From contig CAISDA010000040.1 of the NCBI GenBank assembly GCA_903884005.1, positions 1,539 through 65,538 of the forward strand: 64,000 nt of DNA, read 5' to 3'. A program made the translations under genes and the position numbers. Under the pieces are notes generated by a model. That model did no database searches. It saw only the letters and a program-made list of their open reading frames with translations, and was not told the origin of the DNA. This document shows positions 1,436 through 55,623 of the stretch, one piece after another (position 1 is the stretch's first letter; each line of letters begins with the position of its first letter). This DNA is from an uncultured Ignavibacteriota bacterium. GTDB taxonomy: Bacteria > Bacteroidota > Ignavibacteria > UBA10030 > UBA8401.

Positions 1436-1518
1436 GCGGAACTGGTGGAATTGGCAGACACACTATCTTGAGGGGGTAGCGCCCAAAAGGCGTGCGGGTT
1501 CAAGTCCCGCGTTCCGCA
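1436..1518 (+). tRNA. tRNA-Leu (anticodon GAG), class II with long variable arm
   Basis: Acceptor stem GCGGAAC pairs with GTTCCGC and the discriminator is A. Anticodon arm is CTATC-TTGAGGG-GGTAG, variable hairpin CGCC-CAAAA-GGCG, T-arm GCGGG-TTCAAGT-CCCGC. No encoded CCA. Confidence 0.85.
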
Positions 1519-1630
1519 CTACATGACAGGGGAAGTTGAAAATATTTTGAGGTCATAGTCGCATCAAACGGTACGATGTGCCGGTCTTCAATTGTTTGTA
1601 TTGTTTGCATAGTAAAGTAGAGGAGCGATC

Positions 1631-2035
1631 ATGAAAACGCTCGTAGTGGTTTTGGTATTGGCCGTGGTGAGCACTGCGCTTGCAGTGGCTCTTCCCATTA
1701 AAAGCGGCTCGCTCGTGGCCCGTTCAGACGGGAACAACGTGACCATTCAATGGGGCACGACGGACGAATCGGCGGTAAAGGAATTCGGCATCGAACGCCG
1801 TCCCGCAACCGGAAGTGATTTTGTGCTCGTTGCCACCGTGGCGGCGAAAGGCAGCAACTCGTCGTATGAATACGTGGACCAGACCGCGTTTAAGACCACC
1901 GGCTCGGTGTATCAGTACCGCATCAGGATCGTCGACACCAATTCGGGCGTCAGTTATTCTGAACCGATCAGCGTGTCGCACAATGTCTCGAGTGTGAAGA
2001 GGACGTGGGGAAGTTTGAAGGCGATGTTCCGGTAA
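1631..2035 (+). CDS. Small secreted hypothetical protein, fibronectin-III/Ig-like fold suspected
   Basis: N-terminal signal peptide MKTLVVVLVLAVVSTALAVA; beta-rich sequence (QWGTTDES...YQYRIRIVD); RBS-like GAGGAG upstream of the ATG. Confidence 0.55.
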   Translation: MKTLVVVLVLAVVSTALAVALPIKSGSLVARSDGNNVTIQWGTTDESAVKEFGIERRPATGSDFVLVATVAAKGSNSSYEYVDQTAFKTTGSVYQYRIRIVDTNSGVSYSEPISVSHNVSSVKRTWGSLKAMFR

Positions 2036-2757: not shown

Positions 2758-3139
2758 GCTCACGAACATTAGAGGACGATTCACACCACGGGGACGAATG
2801 TTCACGAGAGCCTCACCCATACCCGTCGAAGTATACTGCTTCCAGTGAAGTGCATCAGAGTCCGTTCCGCACGACGGGGACTCAGACCGCGAAGCACTTC
2901 AGCCTAGATCGATCCTACCCGGGATCATGTTCTGCATTGCATCCGGTAGTGAATTCAATACAAAATACACCACACTGCGCTCTCCGGCTGCGGCATTGAC
3001 CCGGACTGAGCACCGCGTGTTCAAGAGTAGGGGTATTCTGTTTCTATCGCCGGTGTTTTTCCGGTACATCAACCAACACGCGCTGCGCTCGCCCATGAGC
3101 GCCGGGCAGGCAGTTGACCATCAACCAAGGAGCATCATT

Positions 3140-4060
3140 GTGAAGGCACAAGATTTTCTTTCCGTTCGTGACATGGATGCAGAAGAAATTCATGAAACGT
3201 TCCGCATTGCGCGGGACATGAAGGCTGACCGTAACAAATATTCCGCCGCTTTAAAGGGAGAAACGCTCGCGCTCATTTTCGAGAAGCCGTCGCTGCGCAC
3301 GCGCACATCGTTCGATGTGGGCATTCAGCAGCTGGGCGGATTTTCGCTCTATCTGTCTCCCGCAGAGATCAGCCTCGGCAAGCGCGAATCGGTGCACGAT
3401 GTGGCGAAGAACCTCGAGCGGATGGTGCAGGGCATCATGATCCGGACGTTCGCCCACCAGATCGTGGTGGATATGGCGAAGTATGCGTCGATCCCCGTGA
3501 TCAACGGGCTGACCGATTATTCCCATCCCTGTCAGGCGATGGCCGATTTTTTGACCATCCTCGAACACAAGAAGACCCTGGAAGGGCTGAAACTATGTTA
3601 TGTCGGCGACGGAAATAATGTCGCGCACTCGCTGATGTTCGCGGGCGCGCTGCTCGGCGTCAGCGTCACGGTGTTGTGTCCGCCTGATTTCGAGCCGGAC
3701 CCCGCGGCGCTCACGCAGGCCGTTGAGGACGCGCAAAAAACAGGCGCCGTGATAGAGGTTGTTCATGATCCGATCGAGGGAGTGAAGAACGCGGATGTGA
3801 TCTATACGGATGTGTGGGCCTCGATGGGACAGGAAAGCGAAACGGAAAAACGGAAAAAAATATTTCAGCCGTACCAGGTCAACAGCGGGTTGATGGCGCA
3901 TGCGAAAAGCGATGCGTTGTTCATGCACTGTCTGCCGGCGCACCGGGGCGACGAAGTCACGGATGCGGTGATCGACTCGCCGCAGTCCGTCGTGTTCGAC
4001 GAGGCGGAGAACCGCCTGCATGTGCAGAAGGCGATCATGTACCAGCTGATGAAACCATAA
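3140..4060 (+). CDS. argF: Ornithine carbamoyltransferase (anabolic ArgF or catabolic ArcB)
   Basis: STRTR carbamoyl-phosphate motif, HPCQ and HCLPAHRG ornithine-binding motifs. GTG start is preceded by AAGGAG at -7. An alternative upstream ATG at 3095 has no RBS. Confidence 0.88.
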   Translation: MKAQDFLSVRDMDAEEIHETFRIARDMKADRNKYSAALKGETLALIFEKPSLRTRTSFDVGIQQLGGFSLYLSPAEISLGKRESVHDVAKNLERMVQGIMIRTFAHQIVVDMAKYASIPVINGLTDYSHPCQAMADFLTILEHKKTLEGLKLCYVGDGNNVAHSLMFAGALLGVSVTVLCPPDFEPDPAALTQAVEDAQKTGAVIEVVHDPIEGVKNADVIYTDVWASMGQESETEKRKKIFQPYQVNSGLMAHAKSDALFMHCLPAHRGDEVTDAVIDSPQSVVFDEAENRLHVQKAIMYQLMKP

Positions 4061-4090: not shown

Positions 4091-5032
4091 ATGCCTAAAA
4101 CGGCACTCATAGCAATCGGCGGCAACTCGCTCATTCGCGCAGGCGAACGCGGGACGATCGACGAACAGCTCGGCAACGCGCATGCGACAGCCAGAAGCAT
4201 GGTCCAGTTGGTGGCGCGGGGCTGGCGTCTGGTGATCACACACGGCAACGGCCCGCAGGTGGGCGCGGCGCTGCTTCGCTCCGAGCGCGCTGCCGGCGAA
4301 GTCTACTCGCACCCGCTCGACGTCTGCGTAGCGACAACGCAAAGCGAGATCGGCTACATTATACAGCGGGCAGTGGAATACGAACTGCGCCAGATCGGCC
4401 TGTTCACGCCCGTGATGACGGTACTGACGCAGGTGCGCGTGGACGAACACGATCCGGCGTTCCTGCATCCTACGAAACCGATCGGGCCGTTCTATTCGAA
4501 GGCTGACGCCGAAGAAAAGGAACGGACCCTGGGATGGAGCATCGTTGAAGATGCATCCCGCGGCTATCGACGTGTGGTTCCGTCTCCTGAGCCCGTTGAA
4601 GTGTTCGAGCAGGACATTATCCGGAAAATTCTTGACCTGGGCATGATCGTCATCGCCGTCGGAGGCGGGGGAATACCCGTCATAGAAAAAGACAATTATC
4701 TTGTGCTCGGCAGGGAAGCGGTGATCGACAAGGACCGCGCATCGTCACTGCTCGCATCAGAACTCAACACGGACCTCTTTATTATCAGCACCGACGTGCA
4801 ACAGGTGTTTATCGACTATAAGCAGCCGACGCAGCGGGCGGTCGGGAACACGACGGTGAGTGAAATGGAAGGGTACCTGGCGCAAAAGCAGTTCGCCGCG
4901 GGCAGCATGGGACCGAAAGTGGAATCGGCGATCCGCTACATCAAAAAAGGAGGGCAGGAGGCGATCATCACATCGTTCGAGTGCCTTCTGGACGCGGTCG
5001 ACGGAAAAACCGGCACGCATGTGTTTCCCTGA
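4091..5032 (+). CDS. arcC: Carbamate kinase
   Basis: N-terminus MPKTALIAIGGNSL; VITHGNGPQVG motif; amino-acid kinase fold; 313 aa. Directly downstream of the OTC gene. Confidence 0.9.
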   Translation: MPKTALIAIGGNSLIRAGERGTIDEQLGNAHATARSMVQLVARGWRLVITHGNGPQVGAALLRSERAAGEVYSHPLDVCVATTQSEIGYIIQRAVEYELRQIGLFTPVMTVLTQVRVDEHDPAFLHPTKPIGPFYSKADAEEKERTLGWSIVEDASRGYRRVVPSPEPVEVFEQDIIRKILDLGMIVIAVGGGGIPVIEKDNYLVLGREAVIDKDRASSLLASELNTDLFIISTDVQQVFIDYKQPTQRAVGNTTVSEMEGYLAQKQFAAGSMGPKVESAIRYIKKGGQEAIITSFECLLDAVDGKTGTHVFP

Positions 5033-5083: not shown

Positions 5084-6001
5084 ATGAAACTCACCCATGT
5101 CATCGAATCTCAACAGTTCACCGTTCCTTCGTTGATGGAATTATTTGACCGCGCCCAGCTGATGGAAAAGATCGCTGCCCGGGGCGGCACCCGCGACTAC
5201 GAGAACAAGATCATGGCGACGCTGTTCTACAAATCGTCGACGCGGACGCGCTTCTCGTTCGAAGCCGCGATGTACCGGCTCGGCGGGAAGGTGCTGGCGA
5301 CCGAGCACGCCAACGAATTTTCTTCGGAGATCGACGGCGGGCAGCTTGAGGATACCATCCGCATCATTGCGAATTGCAGCGATGTCATCGTGCTTCGGCA
5401 TACGGATGAAGGCGCGGCAAAACGTGCGTCGCTCGTGTCGACCGTACCCGTCATCAATGCGGGGGAAGGCGCAGGTGGGCAGCATCCGACGCAGGCGCTC
5501 CTCGACCTCTACACGATCTACAGGGAATGCAAGGCGCTCAACGGGCTGTCCGTTGCACTCATGGGCGAGTTGGACAACGGACGGACCGCGCGGTCGCTGG
5601 CGTACTTGCTCAGCAAATTCGACCGAGTGAAATTGTATTTTATCGCGCCCTCGGAGATACAGATCAAGCCGGACATCCTGGCATATCTGGACAGCCACCG
5701 GGTGCAGTATGAACTTGCCGAGAGCCCGGAACATATTCTCTCGCATGTCGATGTCGTGTATCGCACGCACATTGACCGCGAACGTCTTCAGCGCCGCGAC
5801 ATCGACCTGACGCCATACAACATCAACGCCGGCGTGCTCTCGACGATGAAATCCAATGCGATCATCATGCATCCGCTGCCGCGCTCGGTCGAGATCGATC
5901 CGGCTGTGGACAACGATCCGCGCGCCGTGTATTTTCGCCAGTCGCGCAACGGCCTGTTTGTGCGCATGGCGCTGTTGACAATTCTTTTCGATCAGGGATA
6001 A
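5084..6001 (+). CDS. pyrB: Aspartate carbamoyltransferase-type transcarbamylase (PyrB-like catalytic chain)
   Basis: STRTR, HPTQ and HPLPR motifs are diagnostic of the ATCase branch rather than OTC (HPCQ / HCLP); 305 aa. GGAGAG RBS. Confidence 0.8.
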   Translation: MKLTHVIESQQFTVPSLMELFDRAQLMEKIAARGGTRDYENKIMATLFYKSSTRTRFSFEAAMYRLGGKVLATEHANEFSSEIDGGQLEDTIRIIANCSDVIVLRHTDEGAAKRASLVSTVPVINAGEGAGGQHPTQALLDLYTIYRECKALNGLSVALMGELDNGRTARSLAYLLSKFDRVKLYFIAPSEIQIKPDILAYLDSHRVQYELAESPEHILSHVDVVYRTHIDRERLQRRDIDLTPYNINAGVLSTMKSNAIIMHPLPRSVEIDPAVDNDPRAVYFRQSRNGLFVRMALLTILFDQG

Positions 6002-6063: not shown

Positions 6064-7260
6064 ATGAATACGAACGACTATATCGCCCTCGAAGAAGAAT
6101 ACGGCGCGCACAATTATCATCCACTTGATGTGGTGATCGAACGGGCTGAAGGCGTGTGGGTGACGGATGTCGAGGGCCGCCGGTATCTCGACTGCCTCGC
6201 GGCATACTCGGCGCTGAATCAGGGGCATTGCCATCCGAAGATCATGGAGGCATTTGTTGCCCAGGCGAAGAAGGTGACTCTGACAAGCCGTGCGTTCCGT
6301 AACGATCAACTCCCGCTCCTTTATAAGATGCTGCACGACATGACGGGATATGAGATGTCGCTGCCCATGAACTCGGGCGCCGAGGCGGTCGAGACGGCGA
6401 TCAAAGCCGCACGCAAATGGGGCTATACGGTGAAGGGGATCCCCGAGAACAAGGCGGAGATCATCTGCGCCGCCGATAATTTTCACGGGCGGACGACAAC
6501 GATCGTGGGATTTTCGACGGAGGAACAGTACAAAAAAGATTTTGGTCCGTTCACGCCGGGATTCCGCATCGTGAAATTCGGCGACATCGATGCCCTGAAG
6601 AGCGCCATCACGCCGAACACCGCCGCCTTTCTCGTGGAGCCTATACAGGGAGAGGCGGGGATCATTGTGCCGCCCGAGGGGTATCTTCGTGAGGCGGCGC
6701 GGATCTGCAAAGAGCAGAACGTGCTCCTGATCTGCGACGAGATCCAATCGGGCCTCGGCCGCAGCGGCAAGCTCTTCGCATTCGAGTACGACAACATTCG
6801 TCCCGACATGGTCGTCATCGGCAAGGCATTATCAGGAGGTTTCTATCCCGTTTCCGCGGTACTTGCGGACAACAACATCCTCGGCGTCTTCAAGCCCGGC
6901 GAGCACGGCTCGACATTCGGCGGCAATCCGCTTGCCGCGGCCGTCGCCTGTGCCGCGCTGCGCGTGCTTGCGGACGAGGATTTGATCGCGAAATCGTTCG
7001 AGCTCGGCGCATATTTTATGGCGAAGCTCCGCGCGATCGACAGCCCGCATGTCAAGGAGATCCGCGGCCGCGGACTGTGGATAGGATTTGTGCTCGACAC
7101 GCCTGCGCGCCCGTACTGCATCGCGCTGATGAACGAAGGAATTCTCTGCAAGGAGACGCACGAGAATGTCATCCGGTTCGCGCCGCCGCTGGTCATCACG
7201 CGGGAAGAGATCGACTGGGCATGCGAGCGCATTCAAAAAGTTGTCTATGCGATTCACTAA
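6064..7260 (+). CDS. rocD: Ornithine--oxo-acid aminotransferase (class III PLP aminotransferase)
   Basis: OAT-like N-terminus (EYGAHNYHPLDVV), PLP-lysine region (VVIGKALSGG), 398 aa. Confidence 0.85.
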   Translation: MNTNDYIALEEEYGAHNYHPLDVVIERAEGVWVTDVEGRRYLDCLAAYSALNQGHCHPKIMEAFVAQAKKVTLTSRAFRNDQLPLLYKMLHDMTGYEMSLPMNSGAEAVETAIKAARKWGYTVKGIPENKAEIICAADNFHGRTTTIVGFSTEEQYKKDFGPFTPGFRIVKFGDIDALKSAITPNTAAFLVEPIQGEAGIIVPPEGYLREAARICKEQNVLLICDEIQSGLGRSGKLFAFEYDNIRPDMVVIGKALSGGFYPVSAVLADNNILGVFKPGEHGSTFGGNPLAAAVACAALRVLADEDLIAKSFELGAYFMAKLRAIDSPHVKEIRGRGLWIGFVLDTPARPYCIALMNEGILCKETHENVIRFAPPLVITREEIDWACERIQKVVYAIH

Positions 7261-7323: not shown

Positions 7324-8658
7324 ATGACGAATGCACAGCGAATCACGACGATCATCGTCGGTGCCGCAGGCCGCGATTTTCATAATTTCAATATGATCTA
7401 TCGGGGCAATGAAGCATATGATGTCGTCGCCTTTACGGCCGCGCAGATTCCGAATATTGCAGGCAGAAAATATCCCGCTTCGCTGGCCGGCTCGCTGTAT
7501 CCCTCCGGCATCCCGATCTTCGAGGAACGCGACCTCGAAAAGCTCATCGCAAAATTCAACGTGGAAGAGGTCGTCTTCTCGTACAGCGATGTCACCTATA
7601 ACCACGTCATGAGCATCGGCTCGCGGGTGACGGCGGCCGGCGCGCATTTCAAGCTGCTGAGCGCCGCTCAGACCATGATCAAAAGCACCAAGCCCGTCGT
7701 GTCTGTGTGCGCCGTGCGCACAGGCAGCGGTAAAAGCCAGACAACACGCCGTGTCTCCGCGATCCTGCAGAACCTGGGATACAGTGTGGCGGCAGTGCGT
7801 CATCCGATGCCGTACGGAGACCTTGAAAAACAAAAAGTGCAGCGCTATGCCACACTCGGTGATCTGAAGAAGCACAAATGCACGATCGAGGAGATGGAAG
7901 AGTACGAGCCGCACATTGTGAGCGGCACCATCATCTATGCCGGCGTCGATTACGCGGCGATCCTGGAGCAGGCGGAGAAGGATGCCGACGTGATCATCTG
8001 GGACGGGGGGAATAACGATCTGCCGTTCTATGCGCCCGACCTTCATATCGTCGTAGCCGATCCGCTTCGCACGGGCGACGAGTTGAAATATTTTCCGAGC
8101 GAGGCGAACCTCCGGCTCGCCGATGTTGTCATCATCAACAAGATCGATTCGGCCCTGCCGGACAATGTGACGAAATTGCGCGCCAACATACGCAGCGTCA
8201 ACACAACGGCGAAGATCATCGATGCCGCATCGCCGATCGCGCTCGAGGCGAGCCACACGATCGCCGGCAAGCGCGTGCTGGTGATAGAGGACGGGCCGAC
8301 CTTGACGCACGGTGAAATGAAATTCGGCGCAGGCACAGTCGCCGCGCTTAAATTCGGCGCCGGCGAGATCGTCGATCCGCGTCCGTACGTGAGCGGCGAG
8401 ATGAAGAAAACCTATGAGACCTATCCGAAGATCGGCGTGCTGCTGCCGGCCATGGGGTACAGCAACAAGCAGATCAAAGACCTTGAAGCAACGGTGAACC
8501 GCGTGCCCTGCGATGTTGTCATTATCGGCACGCCGATCGATCTCAGCCGCATCATCAAGATCACGAAACCGGCGCTTCGCGTTACGTACGACCTTCAGGA
8601 GATAGGCCAGCCCGACCTGCTGGCTGTGCTCAGCGACTTCGCCAGAAAAATACACTAA
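7324..8658 (+). CDS. P-loop NTPase, cyclic 2,3-diphosphoglycerate synthetase (cPGS)-like family, function unknown
   Basis: Walker A (VCAVRTGSGKSQTT) and Walker B-like (DVIIWDGG), 444 aa, AGGAG RBS. Operonic with the genes at 3140-7260. Family assignment is from memory of the domain architecture, not a search. Confidence 0.5.
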   Translation: MTNAQRITTIIVGAAGRDFHNFNMIYRGNEAYDVVAFTAAQIPNIAGRKYPASLAGSLYPSGIPIFEERDLEKLIAKFNVEEVVFSYSDVTYNHVMSIGSRVTAAGAHFKLLSAAQTMIKSTKPVVSVCAVRTGSGKSQTTRRVSAILQNLGYSVAAVRHPMPYGDLEKQKVQRYATLGDLKKHKCTIEEMEEYEPHIVSGTIIYAGVDYAAILEQAEKDADVIIWDGGNNDLPFYAPDLHIVVADPLRTGDELKYFPSEANLRLADVVIINKIDSALPDNVTKLRANIRSVNTTAKIIDAASPIALEASHTIAGKRVLVIEDGPTLTHGEMKFGAGTVAALKFGAGEIVDPRPYVSGEMKKTYETYPKIGVLLPAMGYSNKQIKDLEATVNRVPCDVVIIGTPIDLSRIIKITKPALRVTYDLQEIGQPDLLAVLSDFARKIH

Positions 8659-8661
8659 CGC

Positions 8662-9258
8662 ATGCCAAAACTCCCGGACACGATCATTTTAGCCTCACGG
8701 TCGCCGAGGCGGGCGCAGCTGCTGCGCCAGATCGGCGTCGCATTTGAAACATCGGTATGCGATATCGATGAACTCTTCGACCCCGCGATGACACCCGTAG
8801 AAAATGCGCGGGCGCTTTCCTATATGAAGGCGGCAGATGTCGCCAGCCGCTACAGGCGGGGTATCGTGCTCGGATCCGATACGATCGTCGTGCTGGACGG
8901 CATGCTGCTGGGAAAGCCCGTGTCGGAGGAGGATGCCCGGCGCATGCTGCGCACGCTCAGCGGCAGAACGCACACCGTCGTTACCGGATTTGCGCTTGTT
9001 GATGCGGAGTCAAAAAAATCATATATTGATTGCGAACAGACCGATGTTACATTCCGGTCGCTTGACGACGACGAGATCGCCGCATATGTTGCCGCAGGGT
9101 CGCCCATGGATAAAGCGGGGGCGTACGGCATCCAGGACGATTTCGGCGCCGTATTCGTCGAACGCATCGCGGGTGATTACTACACCGTGGTCGGCCTGCC
9201 ATTATCGAAAGTTTACTGTGCGTTACAGCAGTTCATGACATTACTACAAAAAGGATAA
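8662..9258 (+). CDS. maf: Maf-like nucleoside triphosphate pyrophosphatase
   Basis: N-terminus IILASRSPRRAQLL and overall Maf/Ham1 signature; 198 aa. Confidence 0.9.
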   Translation: MPKLPDTIILASRSPRRAQLLRQIGVAFETSVCDIDELFDPAMTPVENARALSYMKAADVASRYRRGIVLGSDTIVVLDGMLLGKPVSEEDARRMLRTLSGRTHTVVTGFALVDAESKKSYIDCEQTDVTFRSLDDDEIAAYVAAGSPMDKAGAYGIQDDFGAVFVERIAGDYYTVVGLPLSKVYCALQQFMTLLQKG

Positions 9259-9261
9259 GCA

Positions 9262-9663
9262 ATGGAGAAAAAAATTCGAATATTGATCGCGAAGGCCGGT
9301 TTGGACGGCCACGATCGCGGTGCGAAAGTGATCGCGGCGGCACTGCGCGATGCAGGCATGGAAGTGATTTATACCGGATTGCGCAAGTCTCCGGAAATGA
9401 TCGTTGAATCCGCGCTGCAGGAAGATGTGGACGGGATAGGGATCAGTTCTCTCAGCGGCGCCCATATGACCATCTTCCCGAAGGTTGTTGCGCTCATGAA
9501 GGAAAAGGGGATCAGCGACATCATTCTCTTCGGCGGGGGAATCATTCCTCAGGCGGACATTGACGCATTGAAGGCGCTCGGCGTGGGCGAATTATTCACG
9601 CCCGGCACGCCGACGCAAGCCATCGTCGAGTACCTCACGACGGCCTGCGGCGTCACCACGTAA
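9262..9663 (+). CDS. Stand-alone cobalamin (B12)-binding domain protein (methylmalonyl-CoA mutase C-terminal-domain-like)
   Basis: DxHxxG B12-binding motif ([11 protein letters not shown]), Rossmann-like fold, 133 aa. Confidence 0.8.
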
Positions 9664-9821: not shown

Positions 9822-12170
9822 TTATTGTGATTCGTCCAATTCAATGGGCGCATGGCCCGGGAGCGTTTCGGCCGGAGTGTCTGTGCGCGTGTTCCGGATG
9901 CGGATGCCCGACGCATCGAATCCGAACAGATCGTCGCTGGTAAAGATCTGCTGAAAGTCCTTCTCCGCAAAGAAGACGCGGAATTTATCCGAAAGCTCAT
10001 CGAGGCGTTTCAGGTAAAAGCCGGTGTTCTCGTCGGGAAAATTTTCGTCCCACAGGAATGCTTCCTTGACGTTCCTGAAGCCGGTGATCGAGGCGTCCTT
10101 TCCCGTGAAGTAATAGGCGACCCGTTCGCCGAGCCTCACGGGGCGTTTCGACTGAATGACCGCTTCATAGACCGCCGCCCGGTTGCGCCTTCCCGTCCTG
10201 ACTCCGTCTTCATAGTCTTCCAGCGTCTCTTTGATCGTGTCGGTCCGTGTAAAGTCTGCTGCAGTCATTTCGTGGAAACGGAGCGAGTGGACGAGCTCGA
10301 TATAAAACCGGTGCATGTCGCCGAATTGCTCATTCAACAAGCATTCGATGCACTGCCGGAGGAATACCCGCCCGAAGCGTTCGATATTCCTGGACAGGAG
10401 GGACGAGCCCTTGATCGTCACCTTGTTGCGGTGGTCGAGCAGCGCGTAGTTCTTTTTTTTGTAACTGAGCATCTTCGTATACCTGCCGCTGAATCCGAGC
10501 GTGATGCCGTCGGGAAGAAGTGATGAAAGCCGGCCGACGAACTCCCGTTCCGCATGGGTGCCCGCGACATTATCGGGCGGAATACAATAGAGCCCGTCTG
10601 TGTCCACCTCTATGACGGTGCCGTTGTTCAACGTGATATCGTGGATAAGCCGGCGCAGCAGTTCCTGGCCCGATGTGGTGACTTCATCGGCCCGGTCATA
10701 GTCGTTGAACAGCGCCCTTGAATATCCCAGGTATCCGTAAAATGAATTGATCAGCACTTTGAGCGATGACTGCAGCGCGTCGGTTTGCGCGAGCGCGGAT
10801 GCATCGGTCAGCGTCTGGAGTTCCCGTTTCGCCTCGAGCCGTTTCGTTGTGAGAAACCGGAGCGCGGTCGTGAACACATCCAGTGCATCGGTGGCGGGCC
10901 TGATGCCGCGGGTCAGCATGAGAGAGGGGTACAGGGAATCGACATCCGCGTGGACGATCGGCCCGAATACGCCGGTGGCGAAGATATCGGTGTAGCCGCC
11001 CGATGTCTGGAAGCCCTGCTGTGGCTTCGGAAGAGAATGGCGCTGGCGGATGTACGCACGCAGAAAGATCGCTTCGATCTTTGCGGCGGAGCCGAGTTTT
11101 GCCAGCGTTCCGAAATTGAACGGGAGCATCTGCGCCAGGTAGAAGGCCGACCCGAGCAGCGTGTCGCTGACGGCTCGCGTGTCTCTCGCATTCTCCGCCG
11201 CATGCCGGTGGAGAGCACCGGGATCGTGTTCCCACGACCAGGAGACCTTGTCGTCGGGAATGTACTCGCGTCCGGCTGCGGCAGCCCCGAAAAATTGCGC
11301 CGCGTAGTGCAGGCTGTAGCTCTCCATCGAGTGCCGGGATGCGTCGTACGACTGCAAGAGCAACCATGTGTCTATGATGTGCCGGCCGGCGATCTCGAAA
11401 CTCGTGTATTCCACGGTGGTCTCGGCAAACATTGTCCGTGTTGAATGCGTGGAGGGGACCGTTCCGTCGCGCCCCAGGGCGCATTCGATCGAGTGCAGTT
11501 CGCAGCGTTTCATGATGTAGGGCAGCACGGCCGAATAGCAATGATGCGCCTCGATGACGTCGGGATCCTTCTCGCGGACGAGTGCGATGAATTCGGCAAG
11601 GAGTTTTTGTTCGCCGCCGCGCCTGTTTCCCAGCACCTTCTCCCAACCGCGGTTGTCCGACAGCGCGATCACGACGATGCTGTCGTCGAGGCGCTCGGCA
11701 TTGCTCGTGCGGTGCGCCTTCGAGTACGTCTCGATGTCGATCTGCATGCGGTACAGGTCGCCGGCCTCCATCCCCTTGAAGAGCGTCTTGCCCGACTGGA
11801 GCAGGTATTGCGTCGTCATGTCCGGACGGAAGAATATGTGTTCCGTGTCCAGGTACGATGTGACAGGCGTTTGGTAATATGCGCTGATTTTGCGCAGGGC
11901 GAATTGCACCGCTTCCCACGCATCGAAGGAGGATTGAAACGCGCACAGGTACTGATAAAAATTCGTGCCGTCGAGTTTCTTCAGCCAGAATTTTTTGGGA
12001 AAGCCGTCCATGAACCGCGAATCGGACAGGTGGAAGAAGGGGAAAAATTCGACATCACTCGATTCCACGGCGGCGCTTGTCCGCTTGTACACGCGGATCG
12101 ACGAGCCTCCCACCGGGTGGAGAGCGACGATGTGTGTCTCATCGTTATGTCCGAAGAGCAGTGAATCCAT
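9822..12170 (-). CDS. polB: Family B DNA polymerase (E. coli Pol II-like)
   Basis: Exo I DIETYS; motif A DVDSLYPSLM; motif B KVLINSFYGYLG; motif C VIEVDTDGLY; KKRY-like SYKKKNYALL. Length 782 aa (E. coli Pol II is 783 aa) with co-linear DPDVI and LGRD regions. Confidence 0.85.
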   Translation of the reverse strand: MDSLLFGHNDETHIVALHPVGGSSIRVYKRTSAAVESSDVEFFPFFHLSDSRFMDGFPKKFWLKKLDGTNFYQYLCAFQSSFDAWEAVQFALRKISAYYQTPVTSYLDTEHIFFRPDMTTQYLLQSGKTLFKGMEAGDLYRMQIDIETYSKAHRTSNAERLDDSIVVIALSDNRGWEKVLGNRRGGEQKLLAEFIALVREKDPDVIEAHHCYSAVLPYIMKRCELHSIECALGRDGTVPSTHSTRTMFAETTVEYTSFEIAGRHIIDTWLLLQSYDASRHSMESYSLHYAAQFFGAAAAGREYIPDDKVSWSWEHDPGALHRHAAENARDTRAVSDTLLGSAFYLAQMLPFNFGTLAKLGSAAKIEAIFLRAYIRQRHSLPKPQQGFQTSGGYTDIFATGVFGPIVHADVDSLYPSLMLTRGIRPATDALDVFTTALRFLTTKRLEAKRELQTLTDASALAQTDALQSSLKVLINSFYGYLGYSRALFNDYDRADEVTTSGQELLRRLIHDITLNNGTVIEVDTDGLYCIPPDNVAGTHAEREFVGRLSSLLPDGITLGFSGRYTKMLSYKKKNYALLDHRNKVTIKGSSLLSRNIERFGRVFLRQCIECLLNEQFGDMHRFYIELVHSLRFHEMTAADFTRTDTIKETLEDYEDGVRTGRRNRAAVYEAVIQSKRPVRLGERVAYYFTGKDASITGFRNVKEAFLWDENFPDENTGFYLKRLDELSDKFRVFFAEKDFQQIFTSDDLFGFDASGIRIRNTRTDTPAETLPGHAPIELDESQ

Positions 12171-12359
12171 GCACTAATATATACGCCAGCGGGATAAAAG
12201 CAAAAAATAATGAAGGGGAACGACATCGTATCGTGCGGCCTGCCTCAGCCGCTTTGCTCCGAAGGAAATGACAGTGAATGAGAACTGATCGCTTGTGGCC
12301 GGGCGGTTTAAAACACAACACGTCCGGAGCGTTGCCCGGACGTGTTGTGACATGTACAG

Positions 12360-12446
12360 CGGAGAGGGTGGGATTCGAACCCACGGAACGCTTTCACGTT
12401 CACACACTTTCCAGGCGTGCCAGTTCAACCACTCCTGCACCTCTCC
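12360..12446 (-). tRNA. tRNA-Ser (anticodon GGA), class II
   Basis: On the minus strand the sequence reads GGAGAGG...CCTCTCC+G. Anticodon arm is CACGC-CTGGAAA-GTGTG, with a long variable arm and T-arm CGTGG-GTTCGAAT-CCCAC. Confidence 0.85.
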
Positions 12447-12491
12447 GGGATAAAACGGATGTGTGTACACCTGCCTTGCTTTATTTCCTAG

Positions 12492-12578
12492 CGGAGAGGG
12501 AGAGATTCGAACTCTCGATACCCTTACGAGTACACTAGTTTTCGAGACTAGCTCTTTCAACCACTCAGACACCTCTCC
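12492..12578 (-). tRNA. tRNA-Ser (anticodon CGA), class II
   Basis: Minus-strand sequence GGAGAGGTGTCTGAGTGGTTGAAAGAGCTAGTCTCGAAAACTAG...GAGAGTTCGAATCTCTCCCTCTCCG; anticodon loop CTCGAAA. Confidence 0.85.
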
Positions 12579-12755
12579 GTGGTATCCCGTTGAACGTCTT
12601 TCCTCGACGGGGAATTTTAATTTACACAATCTTGATAAATAATGCAATAGGAGGCGCGCACATTTCGCCGAGTTAACCGTCTTCCCGGCGCATGCGCACG
12701 ATTCGGGGGAGAGATCGCCAATCCCCATAAAAGACCGTCATTGTGAATTATTTAG

Positions 12756-24670: not shown

Positions 24671-26319
24671 CTAGAGCTGCAGCACCTGGTGTTCGAAACG
24701 GTCGATGGTGATTTCGCTCATCAGCCACTTCGTGAATTCCAGCCCGTACTTGTTCATGAACTGGAGTGAAGTGAATTCCCGTTCCTGAAAATTTTCGTTC
24801 GGGAATATCGCGGCCGCCGCTTTCATGATCTGTTTGAGCGAGATATCCTGTTTCTGCTGCTGTGCTTTGTGCGTTTTTTCCTTCAGTCCCTGCAGCTGCT
24901 GCTCGAATTTCACGAGTGTCGAGTCCACCGCTCCTTTGAGCGTCGGATCGATCTGCTGAATGCCGAAGCTCGCCTCGGTCACCGCCGCCTGGATCTTCTC
25001 GTTCATCGTACCGAAGACTGTGTCCACTTTTACTTCCGCCACCTGTTCCGCGATCCGCTGCAGTACGCTGTCCAGATCGCCCGCAAGATCGGGTATGGTC
25101 AGCGAATATTTTTCGAGCACCTTGTTGATCTTGTCCTCAAGGATCGTGGCCGACGCGCGCGGGTACACGATCGGCATCTGCAGCTCGAACAGTGCGTACA
25201 CCGTTTTTAATTGCGCGAAGTATGCGATCTCGCCGGGACCGCCGACGTAGGCGACTGTGGGCAGTATGGTATCCTGACAGATGGGGCGAAGGGCGACGTT
25301 CGCCGAAAACACTTCGGGCGTCGTCTCGACCAGCTGCAGCAGTTCCTCCTTCGTGTAGCGCTGCCGCGTGCCTTTCAGGTAATAATCGTTCTCCGACGGT
25401 TCGAGAGGGAAGCGTCCGCCTTTATGGAACATGAACAAATTGAGCGACTTCGGTTTGATCTGCGCATGATAGCGCTCTTCGAGCTCGACGCTTTTTTCGA
25501 TGATGAGCCGCGAGACGGCCGAGTCCGATTCGATCTCTCTGCGGAAGACCGGTTTCATGAGCGCCTTGAGCTCCGGCGTGTTCGCATTCAAGAGCACGAG
25601 TCCCGTGTCTTCGAATAACCGGTTGATCACCCCCGCAAACGCCTCCATCAATGTCGCCCCGGGCTTGTAATACCCGCGCATCAACTCCAGCACCTGTGTT
25701 GTGTATTCCGTCTGCGTGATGGCGCTGCCGAGCCCCGCGAAGAGTGCGTCGATGGTCTCGTCGATGACGATCAGGCCTGTCGCGCCCGGATTTTTGTCGA
25801 ATGGCTGACCGCCGATGAAATAGTTGAACTTCTGCAGCTCGTTCTGCGCGTTGAGCACGGTGATGTTGTTGATCTCGTCGAAATCGTGGTCCTCGCCTTC
25901 GAGCCAGAACACCGGCACGAAATTGAACGCGGGGAAATCTGCCGAGAGTTTTTCGGCCAGCTTCAGTGTCGTGATGATCTTATAGACCGTATACAAGGGC
26001 CCGGAAAAGAGTCCCAATTGCTGCCCGGTGACAATGGCTACGGTGTTCTCATTATCGAGCAGATCGATGTTGGCGAGCGTCCGCACGCTGCAGTGCACCG
26101 CCCGGTTTTGTTCGTGCAGCACCCTCACGAGCGGCGCCCGGTCCATTTTCCGTTCCACGGTCCGGTCGATTGTCCTCTGCCAATCGGCAACGGTTGTATA
26201 CCCGCCCGCGAAGAATTCGGACACTCGTTCAAAATTATTCAAGTAATCAACATATAACTGAGAAAATCCAGCATCTGAACGCTGCAATTGGTCGGTATTG
26301 ATCCATTTCATCGATGTCA
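24671..26319 (-). CDS. bshC: Bacillithiol biosynthesis protein BshC
   Basis: BshC/YllA signature (VTGQQLGLFSGPLYTVYKIITTLKLA), about 550 aa. Start trimmed to MTSMKW. Confidence 0.8.
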
Positions 26320-26585
26320 TCCTGCCGTAAGTAAAAAAAATGTCGACGCAGCACTCTGCCCTCAATGAAAAAAAAGAGTGAAGAGGAGTGTGCGGCGAAC
26401 CGCGAGAGGGGATGAAGCGCATTCGAGGGAGACCGCGCGCTGCCCATGTCGGTTTGAAAGCCTAGCAAATGTACAAGTTAATCGGCGGAGAAGCAACTCT
26501 GCAATTGCTTTTCGGATGCTGATGTGATATATTTATACGTAGCAAGCGCAGGATGAACTCTCGCATTCATTTATGAAATGACCCT

Positions 26586-54134: not shown

Positions 54135-54164
54135 GTTCCCTGCATGGCTACGTTTGAATTCTCA

Positions 54165-54199
54165 CCTGACTGTCGGTTTCGACAGTCAGGTTTTTTTTT
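54165..54199 (+). terminator. Intrinsic terminator after rplI
   Basis: cctgactgtcgGTTTcgacagtcagg followed by TTTTTTTTT. Confidence 0.65.
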
Positions 54200-54228
54200 C
54201 CCGACAACGAAGAAAGGAAGTACCGGCT

Positions 54229-55623
54229 ATGGCTCACACCAAATTACTCTGGACCGGACGGTTCTCGCAGCCGCTGTCTGAGATCGCGCTTCGCTTCTCC
54301 TCCAGCATCGAATTGGATAAGGAAATGTACCGGGAGGATATTCTCGGCAGCATTGCGCACGTCGAAATGCTCGCCTCGGCAAAAATATTGACCGCGGCCG
54401 AAGCCAGACGCATCCGCACGGCGCTCAACGCGATCGGCACGGAGATAGAGAACGACAAGCTCGCCCTGACCTGGGACAAAGAGGACATTCACACCGCGGT
54501 CGAACAGCGCTTGACGCAAAAGATCGGCGCGCTCGGCGGCAAGCTCCATACCGCGCGCAGCCGCAACGACCAGGTCGCGCTCGACGAACGCCTCTACCTC
54601 CGCGGAGCCATACGCGAATTGCAGAAACTCATCGTGCAGCTGCAGCGCGTGCTGCTCTACAAGGCTGAGAAAAATTTCAGCACGATCATGCCGGGCTACA
54701 CCCATATGCAGCGCGCCCAGCCCGTGCTTCTCTCGCACCACCTGCTCGCCTATGCCGGCATGTTCGAACGCGACTTTGAGCGCCTGAACGACGTCTACAA
54801 GCGCATCAATAAGATGCCGCTCGGTTCTGCAGCGCTGGCTGGCACCTCGTTCGCAATCGACCGCGCTTCGGTGGCGAAAAAATTGGGCTTCGACGGCATC
54901 GTCGAGAACAGCATGGACGCCGTGAGCGACCGCGACTATCTCATCGAATACATCGCCGCATGCAGCATCACTATGATGCATCTCAGCCGCTTTGCGGAGG
55001 AACTCGTGCTCTGGAGCTCGCAGGAATTCGCATTCGCCCGCACCGACGACGCCTACACGACCGGCAGCAGCATCATGCCGCAGAAAAAAAACCCCGACAT
55101 GGCGGAACTCGTCCGCGGCAAAGCGGGACGCGTCTTCGGCGATCTTGTGAATCTTCTCACGACAATGAAGGGCCTGCCGCTTGCCTACAACCGCGACATG
55201 CAGGAAGATAAGGTCCCGATGTTCGGCACCACCGCCACAACGCGCCAGTGCCTGTTCATCTTCTCGCATATTCTCGTGCACACGCAGTTCGACGCGAAAC
55301 GCTTCGAGGAAGAATTGAAGAACGATTTTCTCACCGCCACTGAACTCGCCGACTTCCTCGTGAAAAAAGGCATGGCGTTCCGCGACGCTCATGCGGCAAC
55401 GGGAAAAGTCGTCGCCTTCTGCATCCAGCATCAACGGTCAATGGCCGACCTGACGCTCGACGAGTTGCAGAAATTCTCCGACAAATTCGATGTGTCATCG
55501 CAGGCGCTGCTCGATCCGCGGCACAGCATCGAAAACAAAAAATCCGCCGGCAGCACGTCGTCGCAGGAAGTGAAGAAACAGATCGTCCATTGGATGAGAA
55601 TATTGAAAGCCAGGAAGGTGTAA
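54229..55623 (+). CDS. argH: Argininosuccinate lyase
   Basis: Fumarase/ASL family motifs (TGSSIMPQKKNPD). Start trimmed to MAHTKLLWTGRF with a GAAAGGAAG RBS. Confidence 0.9.
   Translation: MAHTKLLWTGRFSQPLSEIALRFSSSIELDKEMYREDILGSIAHVEMLASAKILTAAEARRIRTALNAIGTEIENDKLALTWDKEDIHTAVEQRLTQKIGALGGKLHTARSRNDQVALDERLYLRGAIRELQKLIVQLQRVLLYKAEKNFSTIMPGYTHMQRAQPVLLSHHLLAYAGMFERDFERLNDVYKRINKMPLGSAALAGTSFAIDRASVAKKLGFDGIVENSMDAVSDRDYLIEYIAACSITMMHLSRFAEELVLWSSQEFAFARTDDAYTTGSSIMPQKKNPDMAELVRGKAGRVFGDLVNLLTTMKGLPLAYNRDMQEDKVPMFGTTATTRQCLFIFSHILVHTQFDAKRFEEELKNDFLTATELADFLVKKGMAFRDAHAATGKVVAFCIQHQRSMADLTLDELQKFSDKFDVSSQALLDPRHSIENKKSAGSTSSQEVKKQIVHWMRILKARKV

Follow-up and report, generated by a model that had tools for sequence, protein, structure and literature searches.

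Background

Aspartate carbamoyltransferases (ATCases) are stated to share the two motifs FxExSTR and RxQxER in all known representatives (PMC4581275). UGTCase (Rxyl_2847) is an ATCase paralogue that has a different RxQ motif, is encoded next to a carbamate kinase and acts on another substrate (Barba et al. 2013, PMC4016543). In the described pseudo-ATCases, for which three subgroups are distinguished (PMC4016543), the HxLP motif is changed too (H(T/S)LP in UGTCase), and the respective genes belong to purine or hydantoin clusters. Pairs of a transcarbamylase and a carbamate kinase are also found in ATP-yielding catabolic clusters with the catabolic ornithine carbamoyltransferase (OTC), putrescine carbamoyltransferase (PTCase) or YgeW, all of them members of the OTC or knotted branches of the family; a knotted proline-rich loop marks YgeW and AOTCase/SOTCase.

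An arginine synthetase pathway consisting of the three enzymes ArcE, ArcB and ArcC was described in 2024 (Michimori et al., PMC11032458). There, ArcE (TK2200) appears as a 'putative GTPase' distantly related to cDPG synthetase and encoded beside arcB/arcC. According to a 2026 report, ArcE and ArcB provide carbamoyl phosphate (CP) for pyrimidines in T. kodakarensis, i.e. arginine-derived CP (PMC13260591).

Here we analysed an ATCase-like gene in a 64-kb stretch of DNA from an uncultured Ignavibacteriota bacterium (the window), together with its orthologues. Our literature search retrieved no description of this clade of ATCase-like proteins, none of a pyrB-like gene in arcE operons and no paper linking Ignavibacteria with carbamate kinase.

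An ATCase-like gene in a probably arginine-catabolic operon

The open reading frame at positions 5084-6001 of the + strand is a genuine gene for a protein of 305 amino acids, with an ATG start and a Shine-Dalgarno-like box (GGAGAG) 8 nt upstream of it. The encoded protein contains the Pfam domains OTCace_N and OTCace (PF02729 and PF00185), i.e. the two-domain ATCase/OTCase fold, and is annotated as ATCase in both PGAP and IMG. As the initial annotation had proposed, the gene lies between those for carbamate kinase (CK, arcC; 4091-5032; TIGR00746, 374.4 bits at a cutoff of 358) and ornithine--oxo-acid aminotransferase (OAT, rocD; 6064-7260; TIGR01885, 552.5 bits, cutoff 378), both on the + strand; its neighbours are thus enzymes of arginine and ornithine metabolism, and no pyrI follows. 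The OTC with HPCQ and HCLP motifs that had been placed upstream is present as well and has DxxxSMG in addition, but it is located two genes upstream (3092-4060, + strand) and does not adjoin the ATCase-like gene. This arcB/argF-type protein scored 437.6 bits with NF001986 (cutoff 306) and 411 bits with TIGR00658 (cutoff 281); its start is uncertain, as the reading frame opens at 2927, and Met-56 at 3092 agrees with the length of the homologues. The genes for OTC and CK are adjacent.

Downstream of the OAT gene, a P-loop protein of 444 amino acids is encoded at 7324-8658 (+ strand). It has no match in Pfam or NCBIfam; its weak sequence match and its best structural match (Foldseek, E 5e-17) are both cDPG synthetase, and databases list it as 'predicted GTPase' or 'cyclic 2,3-diphosphoglycerate synthase'. 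By size, name, sequence and fold match and position this candidate fits the published description of ArcE. The operon is probably arginine-catabolic, because this neighbour fits ArcE and because argH is located elsewhere in the same window, following the logic set out in PMC11032458. Arranged in this way, the window has arcB, arcC and an arcE candidate in common with the described ArcE-ArcB-ArcC systems. Unlike these, it contains an ATCase-like gene, accompanied in most of the clade by rocD, between arcC and arcE, and neither is mentioned in the available portions of the two reports (PMC11032458, PMC13260591).

A scan for promoters and terminators yielded counts no higher than chance and no terminator-like site on the + strand between 2900 and 9790. 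A tblastn search of the 64-kb window gave no second ATCase.

Conservation of the operon across phyla

Of 80 species-level genomes (GTDB species), about 76 have the gene inside the arrangement OTC-CK-X-(OAT)-(ArcE), where X denotes the ATCase-like gene, and this synteny spans at least three phyla (Ignavibacteria/Kapabacteria, Acidobacteriota and Gemmatimonadota). The order is also seen at loci L001-L007 and L010. Complete chromosomes with the gene include OY970334.1 (4.24 Mb), JAVSMQ010000001.1 (4.53 Mb), OY761611.1 (3.83 Mb) and CAVUJA010000001.1 (3.2 Mb). OTC is syntenic at about 70 of the 80 loci and CK directly precedes the ATCase-like gene at nearly all of them, while OAT follows immediately in most loci and the ArcE candidate is syntenic in most. 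All-against-all clustering of 1029 flanking reading frames revealed no conserved neighbours beyond OTC, CK, OAT and ArcE, and among the conserved flanking frames there was none for making a second ureido compound. No arginine deiminase was detected near the gene in the Kapabacteria loci lacking ArcE. At two loci (L029 and L088) the gene stands alone among unrelated neighbours, away from arc genes; pyr genes were absent from the vicinity in every context examined, including these two. In 20-kb flanks of the 80 genomes (about 1.3 Mb in total), tblastn found no other ATCase.

Fold and family assignment

The best match of the protein in the PDB was Arabidopsis PYRB, a plant-type (class-C) PyrB (phmmer, E 8e-91). 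An AlphaFold model (pLDDT 89.9) superposed on the Arabidopsis ATCase 6yw9 with a TM score of 0.92, and the closest structures were all ATCases; the sole segment of low confidence comprised residues 81-84 in the 80s loop. With Arabidopsis PYRB (PDB 6ypo/6ys6) the window protein shares the two-domain fold (TM 0.92), about 51% of the structurally aligned residues, identical CP-binding residues, HPLP, R167 and R234, and the lack of a regulatory chain. It differs from PYRB in the substitutions E50K, K84D, E86G, D162E, R229H and Q231D, in a one-residue insertion before HPTQ, in a 240s loop that is 3-4 residues shorter, and in the location of its gene in an arginine-catabolic operon and not among pyr genes.

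The PGAP equivalog model for ATCase, TIGR00670, gave 278.8 bits and hence exceeded its cutoff of 237; members of the clade reached 279-302 bits compared with 357-420 bits for genuine PyrB. With NF002032 the window protein stayed below the cutoff (253.1 vs 263 bits), clade members scored at the cutoff and canonical PyrB attained 318-332 bits. Pfam, TIGR00670, the PDB match and the AlphaFold model together assign the protein to the ATCase branch.

The comparison with related transcarbamylases that the initial annotation had recommended was carried out with family models, and none of these reached its cutoff: PTCase gave 98 bits (cutoff 500), YgeW 27 bits (cutoff 453) and AOTCase/SOTCase 50 bits (cutoff 288). 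An identity as OTC was rejected as well (HPLP present, SMG loop missing; TIGR00658, 128.9 bits vs 281), and DPTCase and DBTCase were dismissed on HMM scores and motifs. The scores far below the NCBIfam cutoffs separate the protein from catabolic OTC, PTCase and YgeW, although it shares with them the pairing of a transcarbamylase with CK in a catabolic cluster. UGTCase was rejected because HPLP is kept and the context is arginine/ornithine, the altered RxQ motif being the only common feature in this respect.

Acceptor-site residues are replaced throughout the clade

For comparisons, residues were numbered by alignment to E. coli PyrB. In ATCases, Glu50 takes part in the salt bridges of domain closure, Lys84 is contributed by the 80s loop of the adjacent chain, and R229 and Q231 bind the β-carboxylate of aspartate. 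Single mutations at K84, D162 or R229 of the E. coli enzyme lower the activity about 10^3- to 10^4-fold.

The CP-binding motifs of the window protein are kept, namely STRTR (residues 52-56, nt 5237-5251), HPTQ (134-137, nt 5483-5494) and HPLPR (263-267, nt 5870-5884, + strand), the last of which is invariant in the family and contains the cis-Leu-Pro motif that orients both substrates. The CP site in the N-domain is therefore intact (S52, T53, R54, T55, R105, H134, Q137, the HPLP motif and R296), and the clamp for the α-carboxylate (R105/R167) and R234 are kept, too. In contrast, the ATCase-invariant residues E50, K84, D162, R229 and Q231 are replaced by K, D, E, H and D. The earlier statement that the STRTR/HPTQ/HPLPR set is characteristic of ATCase and not of OTC was right in that the CP-binding motifs are of the ATCase type, but it was too strong, because two of the motifs by which ATCases are defined, FxExSTR and RxQxER (PMC4581275), are not present.

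The substitutions are distributed over several segments, all on the + strand. In FYKSSTRTR (5225-5251) the STRT that binds the CP phosphate is kept and the ATCase-defining Glu50 is Lys, i.e. FxExSTR has become FYKSSTR; in the close family this position is K in 74, R in 42 and N in 5 sequences and never E; among canonical representatives it is E (111) or Q (16). An alignment of the 80s and 240s loops, which had been advised along with the family comparison, showed Lys84 replaced by Asp and RxQxER by HIDRER. In the 80s loop, SSEIDGGQLEDT (5321-5356), Glu86 is Gly as well; position 84 is E40/K34/R19/H13/D5/A5 in the close family and K in 127 of 133 representatives. GGQHPTQ (5474-5494) carries the clade-specific one-residue Gly insertion ahead of the conserved HPTQ. 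Within GELDNGRTARS (5564-5596), Glu takes the place of Asp162, for which most of the clade has Ala, and Arg167 is kept. YRTHIDRER (5759-5785) replaces RxQxER in an ungapped alignment to the Arabidopsis, M. jannaschii, human and E. coli ATCases, with Arg229 changed to His, Gln231 to Asp and Arg234 kept; the 240s loop that follows is shorter than in ATCases by 3-4 residues.

By sequence comparison of about 190 distinct clade members with 121 canonical representatives, loss of the acceptor-site signature is a property of the clade and not confined to the window protein. Clade members are 59-100% identical to each other and show a median identity of 45% to canonical ATCases; across phyla they share 59-73% (median 66%), compared with a median of 43% among canonical ATCases. 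D162, present in 120 of 121 canonical sequences, never occurs in the clade, where the position is A (166) or E (9) in the Bacteroidota type and E in all 26 sequences of the Acidobacteria type. Q231 is found in 121/121 canonical sequences and is otherwise D, N, E or R in the clade, apart from three Korobacteraceae-like members (L070, L076, L085), which keep both R229 and Q231, and one Bacteroidota-type member (L051). K84 is replaced by E in the Acidobacteria type and is variable in the Bacteroidota type, and E233 is relaxed. R229 is kept in about three quarters of the members, whereas every CP residue, R167 and R234 are fixed across the clade. Further marks are a clade-specific TxDY motif and the Gly insertion before HPTQ (174/175 of the Bacteroidota type and 21/26 of the Acidobacteria type), which is missing in 116 of 121 canonical sequences.

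Summed over the five pocket positions that vary (50/84/162/229/231), the charge is mostly 0 to +2 in the clade and 0 in canonical enzymes; H229 occurs together with K/R/H84 and R229 with E84. Of all variants, that of the window protein carries the most negative charge (net -2). A negative pocket binding a cationic substrate was considered and rejected, since the Acidobacteria-type orthologues have Arg as residue 231 and the net charge stays about the same.

The nearest canonical relatives belong to unrelated taxa. When 20 representatives were looked up by cluster, they proved to be from plants, Bacilli and archaea, and P0122, the canonical representative closest to the clade, is PyrB of a Candidatus Dormibacteraeota, with no contig shared with the clade.

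Possible functions of the ATCase-like protein

We tentatively favour, at somewhat below an even chance, the reading that the protein is a predicted catalytically competent CP transferase of the ATCase branch which is not a canonical PyrB, would not bind aspartate in the canonical manner and would share the CP pool of the operon, making it a fourth kind of 'pseudo-ATCase'. The residues for aspartate β-carboxylate binding and domain closure (E50, K84, D162, R229/Q231, E233) are replaced and vary among the orthologues. The name 'pyrB' in the databases is probably wrong or incomplete, because these aspartate-binding residues are lost and the gene lies inside an arginine-breakdown operon in at least 80 bacterial species. 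The net -2 pocket of the window protein is hard to reconcile with the binding of a dicarboxylate. A point against this reading is residue 231, which changes from Asp to Arg among the orthologues and so may have no bearing on specificity instead of conferring a new one. An arginine/ornithine context is found in none of the three described pseudo-ATCase subgroups (PMC4016543), and the clade differs from these also in keeping HPLP. Like the clade, UGTCase is a paralogue from the ATCase branch that carries the annotation ATCase, has an altered RxQ and is encoded beside CK in a catabolic cluster; it is a precedent for a changed acceptor.

According to the mechanism we propose, OTC-CK-X-(OAT)-(ArcE) would degrade arginine to glutamate semialdehyde, with ATP gained via citrulline phosphorolysis and carbamate kinase. 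The ATCase-like enzyme would use the CP pool of OTC and CK and catalyse carbamoyl transfer between CP and the α-amino group of an amino-acid-type acceptor, whose carboxylate may be held by R105/R167 and whose side chain would go unread by the canonical aspartate pocket. Either a second CP-yielding phosphorolysis would feed carbamate kinase, or an N-carbamoyl amino acid would be made from arginine-derived CP. We put forward with reserve the possibility that the clade is a new transcarbamylase with a non-aspartate acceptor. It would then add a so far unrecognised step, the fourth or fifth, to the bacterial operon for arginine synthetase and ornithine catabolism, either as a second CP-yielding phosphorolysis with a higher ATP yield or by producing an N-carbamoyl amino acid that has not been described. 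The neofunctionalisation suggested by the initial annotation has real support, however not from the evidence given then but from the replaced acceptor-site invariants and a cross-phylum clade fixed in OTC-CK-X-OAT-ArcE. The regulatory link between pyrimidine and arginine carbamoylation suggested there may exist in the form of metabolic coupling, because arginine-derived CP feeds pyrimidine synthesis in T. kodakarensis (PMC13260591).

The main rival, a rather unlikely one in our view, draws on that same T. kodakarensis physiology and takes the protein for a rewired but genuine ATCase isozyme, an accessory unregulated trimer beside a housekeeping pyrB that would carbamoylate L-aspartate with CP from the catabolic OTC and so connect arginine breakdown to pyrimidine synthesis; the off-take of arginine-derived CP known from that organism counts against the preferred reading. 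In place of K84, R231 would supply the positive charge in the Acidobacteria type and K/R50 in the Bacteroidota type, and the D162-Q231 contact would be replaced by E162-R231 or A162-D231. Several features that speak for the isozyme weigh against the non-canonical transferase at the same time. No member has lost R105, R167 or R234 and most retain R229, as aspartate would need, and the pocket charges look relocated rather than lost, with a conserved net charge and H229 going together with K/R/H84, which would fit an anionic acceptor such as aspartate; these charge correlations are confounded by phylogeny, because independent events are few. RxQxER is kept in the three Korobacteraceae-like members, the curated TIGR00670 cutoff is still passed and the nearest structures are exclusively ATCases. 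An isozyme also requires no partner gene from the operon; for the non-canonical transferase, the operon offers no extra gene for a second ureido compound. Against the isozyme stands the joint loss of five residues that 120-121 of the 121 canonical ATCases share, three of which cost the E. coli enzyme most of its activity when mutated singly. Moreover, positions 50, 84, 231 and 233 still vary in the clade, which is unexpected for residues binding a fixed substrate, and with H229, D84, G86 and D231 the window protein is left with K50 as the only candidate ligand for the β-carboxylate.

It is improbable that the gene is an ordinary housekeeping pyrB, the only ATCase of these organisms, placed beside arc genes merely because all of them use CP. 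The PGAP and IMG names agree with this, as do the searches of the window and the flanks of the 80 genomes, in which no other ATCase was found, and the two copies standing apart from arc genes. Yet the defining ATCase motifs are lacking, pyr genes are absent from every context examined, the closest canonical ATCases are those of unrelated taxa, and identity across phyla (59-73%) is far from the canonical median of 43%. This high identity is similar over the whole five-gene block, which resembles an accessory operon open to transfer more than a housekeeping gene passed on vertically. We likewise give little credence to a non-catalytic or regulatory CP-binding subunit, either a CP sensor or a scaffold docking the OTC trimer or CK dimer for channelling of labile CP, akin to the inactive PyrC' needed by Pseudomonas ATCase. 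Relaxed acceptor-side residues opposite an invariant CP side, the tight and fixed place between CK and OAT and the CK-OTC channelling complexes described for P. furiosus (PMC6022934) would suit such a role. However, the catalytic residues are all invariant, including the carbonyl-polarising R105, H134, Q137 and the cis Leu-Pro, and so are R167 and R234 of the acceptor domain; this conservation exceeds what binding alone would need, and no fusion or interaction was seen.

Consequences for annotation

A conserved extra CP enzyme in a bacterial operon would mean either a dedicated branch of CP to pyrimidines or a new transcarbamylase reaction, and the clade represents a natural experiment in which an enzyme studied as thoroughly as few others has had 'invariant' residues of its active site moved or discarded. 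The name 'aspartate carbamoyltransferase' is attached to the protein in at least 164 species-level genomes and to hundreds of metagenomic proteins, although the residue-level definition of the enzyme fails; for this reason pyrimidine synthesis may be mis-scored in metabolic reconstructions of Ignavibacteria, Kapabacteria and Acidobacteriota. The arginine-fermentation module is missed in such reconstructions, too, since the databases call ArcE 'cDPG synthase' or 'GTPase'.

An ATCase-like gene within an arginine/ornithine gene array

The gene at 5084-6001 (+) starts with ATG, 8 nt downstream of a GGAGAG box, and encodes a 305-aa protein in which Pfam recognized both halves of the aspartate/ornithine carbamoyltransferase (ATCase/OTCase) fold (PF02729 and PF00185). 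Its best solved relative was Arabidopsis PYRB (phmmer E 8e-91), and an AlphaFold model (pLDDT 89.9) fitted that structure with a TM of 0.92. Ornithine carbamoyltransferase (OTC, ~3092-4060, with HPCQ, DxxxSMG and HCLP) and carbamate kinase (CK, 4091-5032) precede it and ornithine aminotransferase (OAT, 6064-7260) follows, all on the + strand and all above curated NCBIfam cutoffs. The arginine/ornithine neighbourhood described in the initial annotation was thus confirmed; its statement that no pyrI-like regulatory chain follows also holds at this locus. No second ATCase was detected by tblastn in the 64-kb window. Since the gaps between the genes are 30-63 nt and there is no + strand terminator-like site between 2900 and 9790, the genes form one co-directional array.

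The 444-aa P-loop protein encoded at 7324-8658 (+) had no family match in Pfam or NCBIfam. Cyclic 2,3-diphosphoglycerate synthetase matched it weakly in sequence (E 0.002) and ranked first in the structural comparison (Foldseek E 5e-17); PGAP names the protein 'cyclic 2,3-diphosphoglycerate synthase' and IMG 'predicted GTPase'. These features agree with the description of the arginine synthetase ArcE (TK2200) by Michimori et al. (PMC11032458): ArcE catalyzes arginine + ADP + Pi = citrulline + NH3 + ATP, is often found beside arcB/arcC and is listed for Bacteroidota and Acidobacteria. By such indirect matches in features and position, the protein is a candidate ArcE, and databases have probably misnamed it systematically (arginine synthetase was described in 2024).

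The window also encodes ArgH, argininosuccinate lyase (54154-55623, +; TIGR00838, 592 bits), so the organism has the classical arginine biosynthetic end-steps besides the ArcE operon. PMC11032458 argues that ArcE serves arginine breakdown in organisms possessing the ArgG/ArgH route; on this argument the array is probably an arginine-catabolic, ATP-yielding operon with the ATCase-like gene built in.

Aspartate-contacting residues are replaced

The three motifs reported initially, STRTR (residues 52-56), HPTQ (134-137) and HPLPR (263-267), are present, but the ATCase signature is incomplete: FxExSTR reads FYKSSTR and RxQxER reads HIDRER. In an ungapped alignment with the Arabidopsis, M. jannaschii, human and E. 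coli ATCases, the canonical E50, K84, E86, D162, R229 and Q231 (E. coli PyrB numbering) are replaced by K, D, G, E, H and D, respectively. In the E. coli enzyme, R229 and Q231 bind the aspartate β-carboxylate, K84 of the adjoining chain helps to place the α-carboxylate, and FxExSTR is given as an ATCase-characteristic motif (Shi et al., PMC4581275). The window protein departs from ATCases at four defining positions and lacks the published motifs; by these criteria it falls outside the canonical ATCases. All carbamoyl phosphate (CP) residues are kept (S52, T53, R54, T55, R105, H134, Q137, P/L of HPLP, R296), likewise R167 and R234. The net charge over five pocket positions is -2, an extreme within the clade of orthologues, and K50 is the sole possible carboxylate ligand left.

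The replacements characterize a clade

Among 5.8 billion proteins searched, 120 emerged as close homologues (72-93% identity), and their source names were Bacteroidota or Ignavibacteriales MAG proteins. Among 1.84 billion representatives at the 50% identity level there was a single close one, P0121 (66%), followed by canonical ATCases at ≤55%. Scanning one genome per GTDB species gave 164 relatives, the best 80 of which fell into two groups: Ignavibacteria, Kapabacteria and other Bacteroidota (68-88% identity), and Acidobacteriota, Gemmatimonadota and Vicinamibacterales (65-68%).

For a view position by position, 121 canonical representatives served as the reference for 190 distinct sequences of the clade. 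D162 (canonical in 120/121) is Ala, in a few cases Glu, in the Bacteroidota type and Glu in the Acidobacteria type. Q231 (121/121) is D/N/E in the former, with Q in one member (L051), and mostly R in the latter, with Q in three Korobacteraceae-like members. K84, found in 127 of 133 representatives, varies in the Bacteroidota type (E, K, R, H, D, A) and is Glu in the Acidobacteria type; position 50, canonically E or Q, is K/R and Q/E, respectively. E233 is also relaxed, a TxDY motif at residues 36-39 is common to clade members, and one Gly is inserted before HPTQ in 174/175 Bacteroidota-type and 21/26 Acidobacteria-type members. At the sequence level, the signature changes are thus a property of the clade and no local oddity. 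The two phylum groups shared a median identity of 66%; for the clade against canonical ATCases the median was 45%, and canonical ATCases compared with one another gave 43%. Clade members scored 279-302 bits against TIGR00670 (PGAP equivalog, cutoff 237; E. coli PyrB 420, Dormibacteraeota PyrB 357) and lay at the cutoff of NF002032, which explains why pipelines name them ATCases.

The sister group, comprising the farmland metagenome contig L010 (P0121) and the Acidobacteria-type loci L060-L090, has the same operon and different replacements (E84, E162, R231, with E/Q50 kept). In the three Korobacteraceae-like members that keep Q231, arcE lies upstream of OTC.

When the five window proteins were compared with the 80 loci by tblastn, the one-strand order OTC-CK-ATCase-like-(OAT)-(ArcE) was found in ~76; it is shared by L010 and by the metagenomic loci L001-L007. 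Kapabacteria loci with the first four genes had neither ArcE nor arginine deiminase within 10 kb. Since such ArcE-less loci keep OTC, CK and OAT, the ATCase-like gene is tied most tightly to these and not to ArcE. ArcE-less arrays were seen in L033, L048, L052, L055, L057, L058 and L065 (Kapabacteria and relatives). Clustering of 1029 flank ORFs gave no further conserved partner. The gene stands solitary among unrelated genes in L029 and L088. In a Terriglobia MAG (CAWGKF010000003.1; L090, 1-5050) the OTC-CK-ATCase-like block is duplicated in tandem, with the first copy fragmented; the duplication may be genuine or may have arisen in assembly.

The comparison with YgeW, PTCase and AOTC/SOTC proposed in the initial annotation gave HMM scores far under the cutoffs, as did that with OTC. 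DPTCase and DBTCase have an HDLP motif, and the three described pseudo-ATCase groups alter HxLP and belong to purine or hydantoin clusters; these identities were rejected. An ATCase-like member of arc operons is unmentioned in the transcarbamylase reviews PMC4581275 and PMC6022934 and in the available parts of the ArcE papers PMC11032458 and PMC13260591; we therefore class the clade, defined from sequence, as an undescribed, widely distributed subfamily of ATCase-like proteins.

Possible function

The window protein retains an ATCase-fold, trimer-type architecture with the CP site, the catalytic residues and the α-carboxylate clamp R105/R167, whereas the residues that specifically read the aspartate side chain and drive canonical domain closure are all lost or relaxed, and its gene is fixed in an operon of CP-making and CP-consuming enzymes. 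We tentatively rank first the reading that the clade is a new pseudo-ATCase whose acceptor would be bound otherwise than aspartate in PyrB. The enzyme would catalyze carbamoyl exchange of CP with an amino acceptor, drawing on a CP pool common with OTC and CK. A precedent is the ureidoglycine carbamoyltransferase (UGTCase) group, whose RxQ-altered paralogues beside carbamate kinase were shown to act on a different substrate (PMC4016543).

The main rival, a rewired ATCase isozyme, is somewhat less likely. R167 and R234 persist, R229 mostly so, and the charges at the variable positions add up to nearly the canonical total. Members with H229 tend to have K/R/H84 and those with R229 to have E84, charge correlations that rest on few independent events, and D162-Q231, E162-R231 and A162-D231 look like swaps in one contact. 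In the E. coli enzyme, however, mutating K84, D162 or R229 singly lowers activity by three to four orders of magnitude, and the variable positions are still drifting among orthologues. PMC13260591 does report that pyrimidine CP in T. kodakarensis comes from ArcE and ArcB, which suits an isozyme. That the gene is an ordinary sole pyrB is improbable: the whole five-gene block is alike across phyla, and the closest canonical relatives belong to unrelated taxa. Equally improbable is a non-catalytic CP-binding partner, against which the invariance of all catalytic residues argues.

Other features of the window

Spacers of 3 nt hint at co-transcription of arcE with the two genes behind it, which encode a Maf nucleotide pyrophosphatase (8662-9258, +) and a B12-binding domain protein of stand-alone form (methylmalonyl-CoA mutase C-terminal type; 9262-9663, +). 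The other loci do not keep this order, and L011 has Maf upstream of OTC. Convergent with the array, in bacterial chromosomal context, is a 782-aa family-B DNA polymerase (9822-12170, -; PF00136/PF03104). Long ORFs across 12174-12728 were rejected as artefacts of tRNA genes; two adjacent tRNA-Ser genes (GGA, 12359-12446; CGA, 12491-12578) lie on the - strand and tRNA-Leu(GAG) at 1436-1519 (+). By eye, the translated end of the first ORF (3-1256, +), NYPNPFNPSTTLQFSL, resembles a T9SS-type sorting tail, in keeping with an origin of the Bacteroidota/Ignavibacteria kind; no such tail was seen in the ORF at 1631-2035 (+). A BshC-type bacillithiol biosynthesis protein is encoded at 24671-26422 (-; PF10079, E 9e-116).
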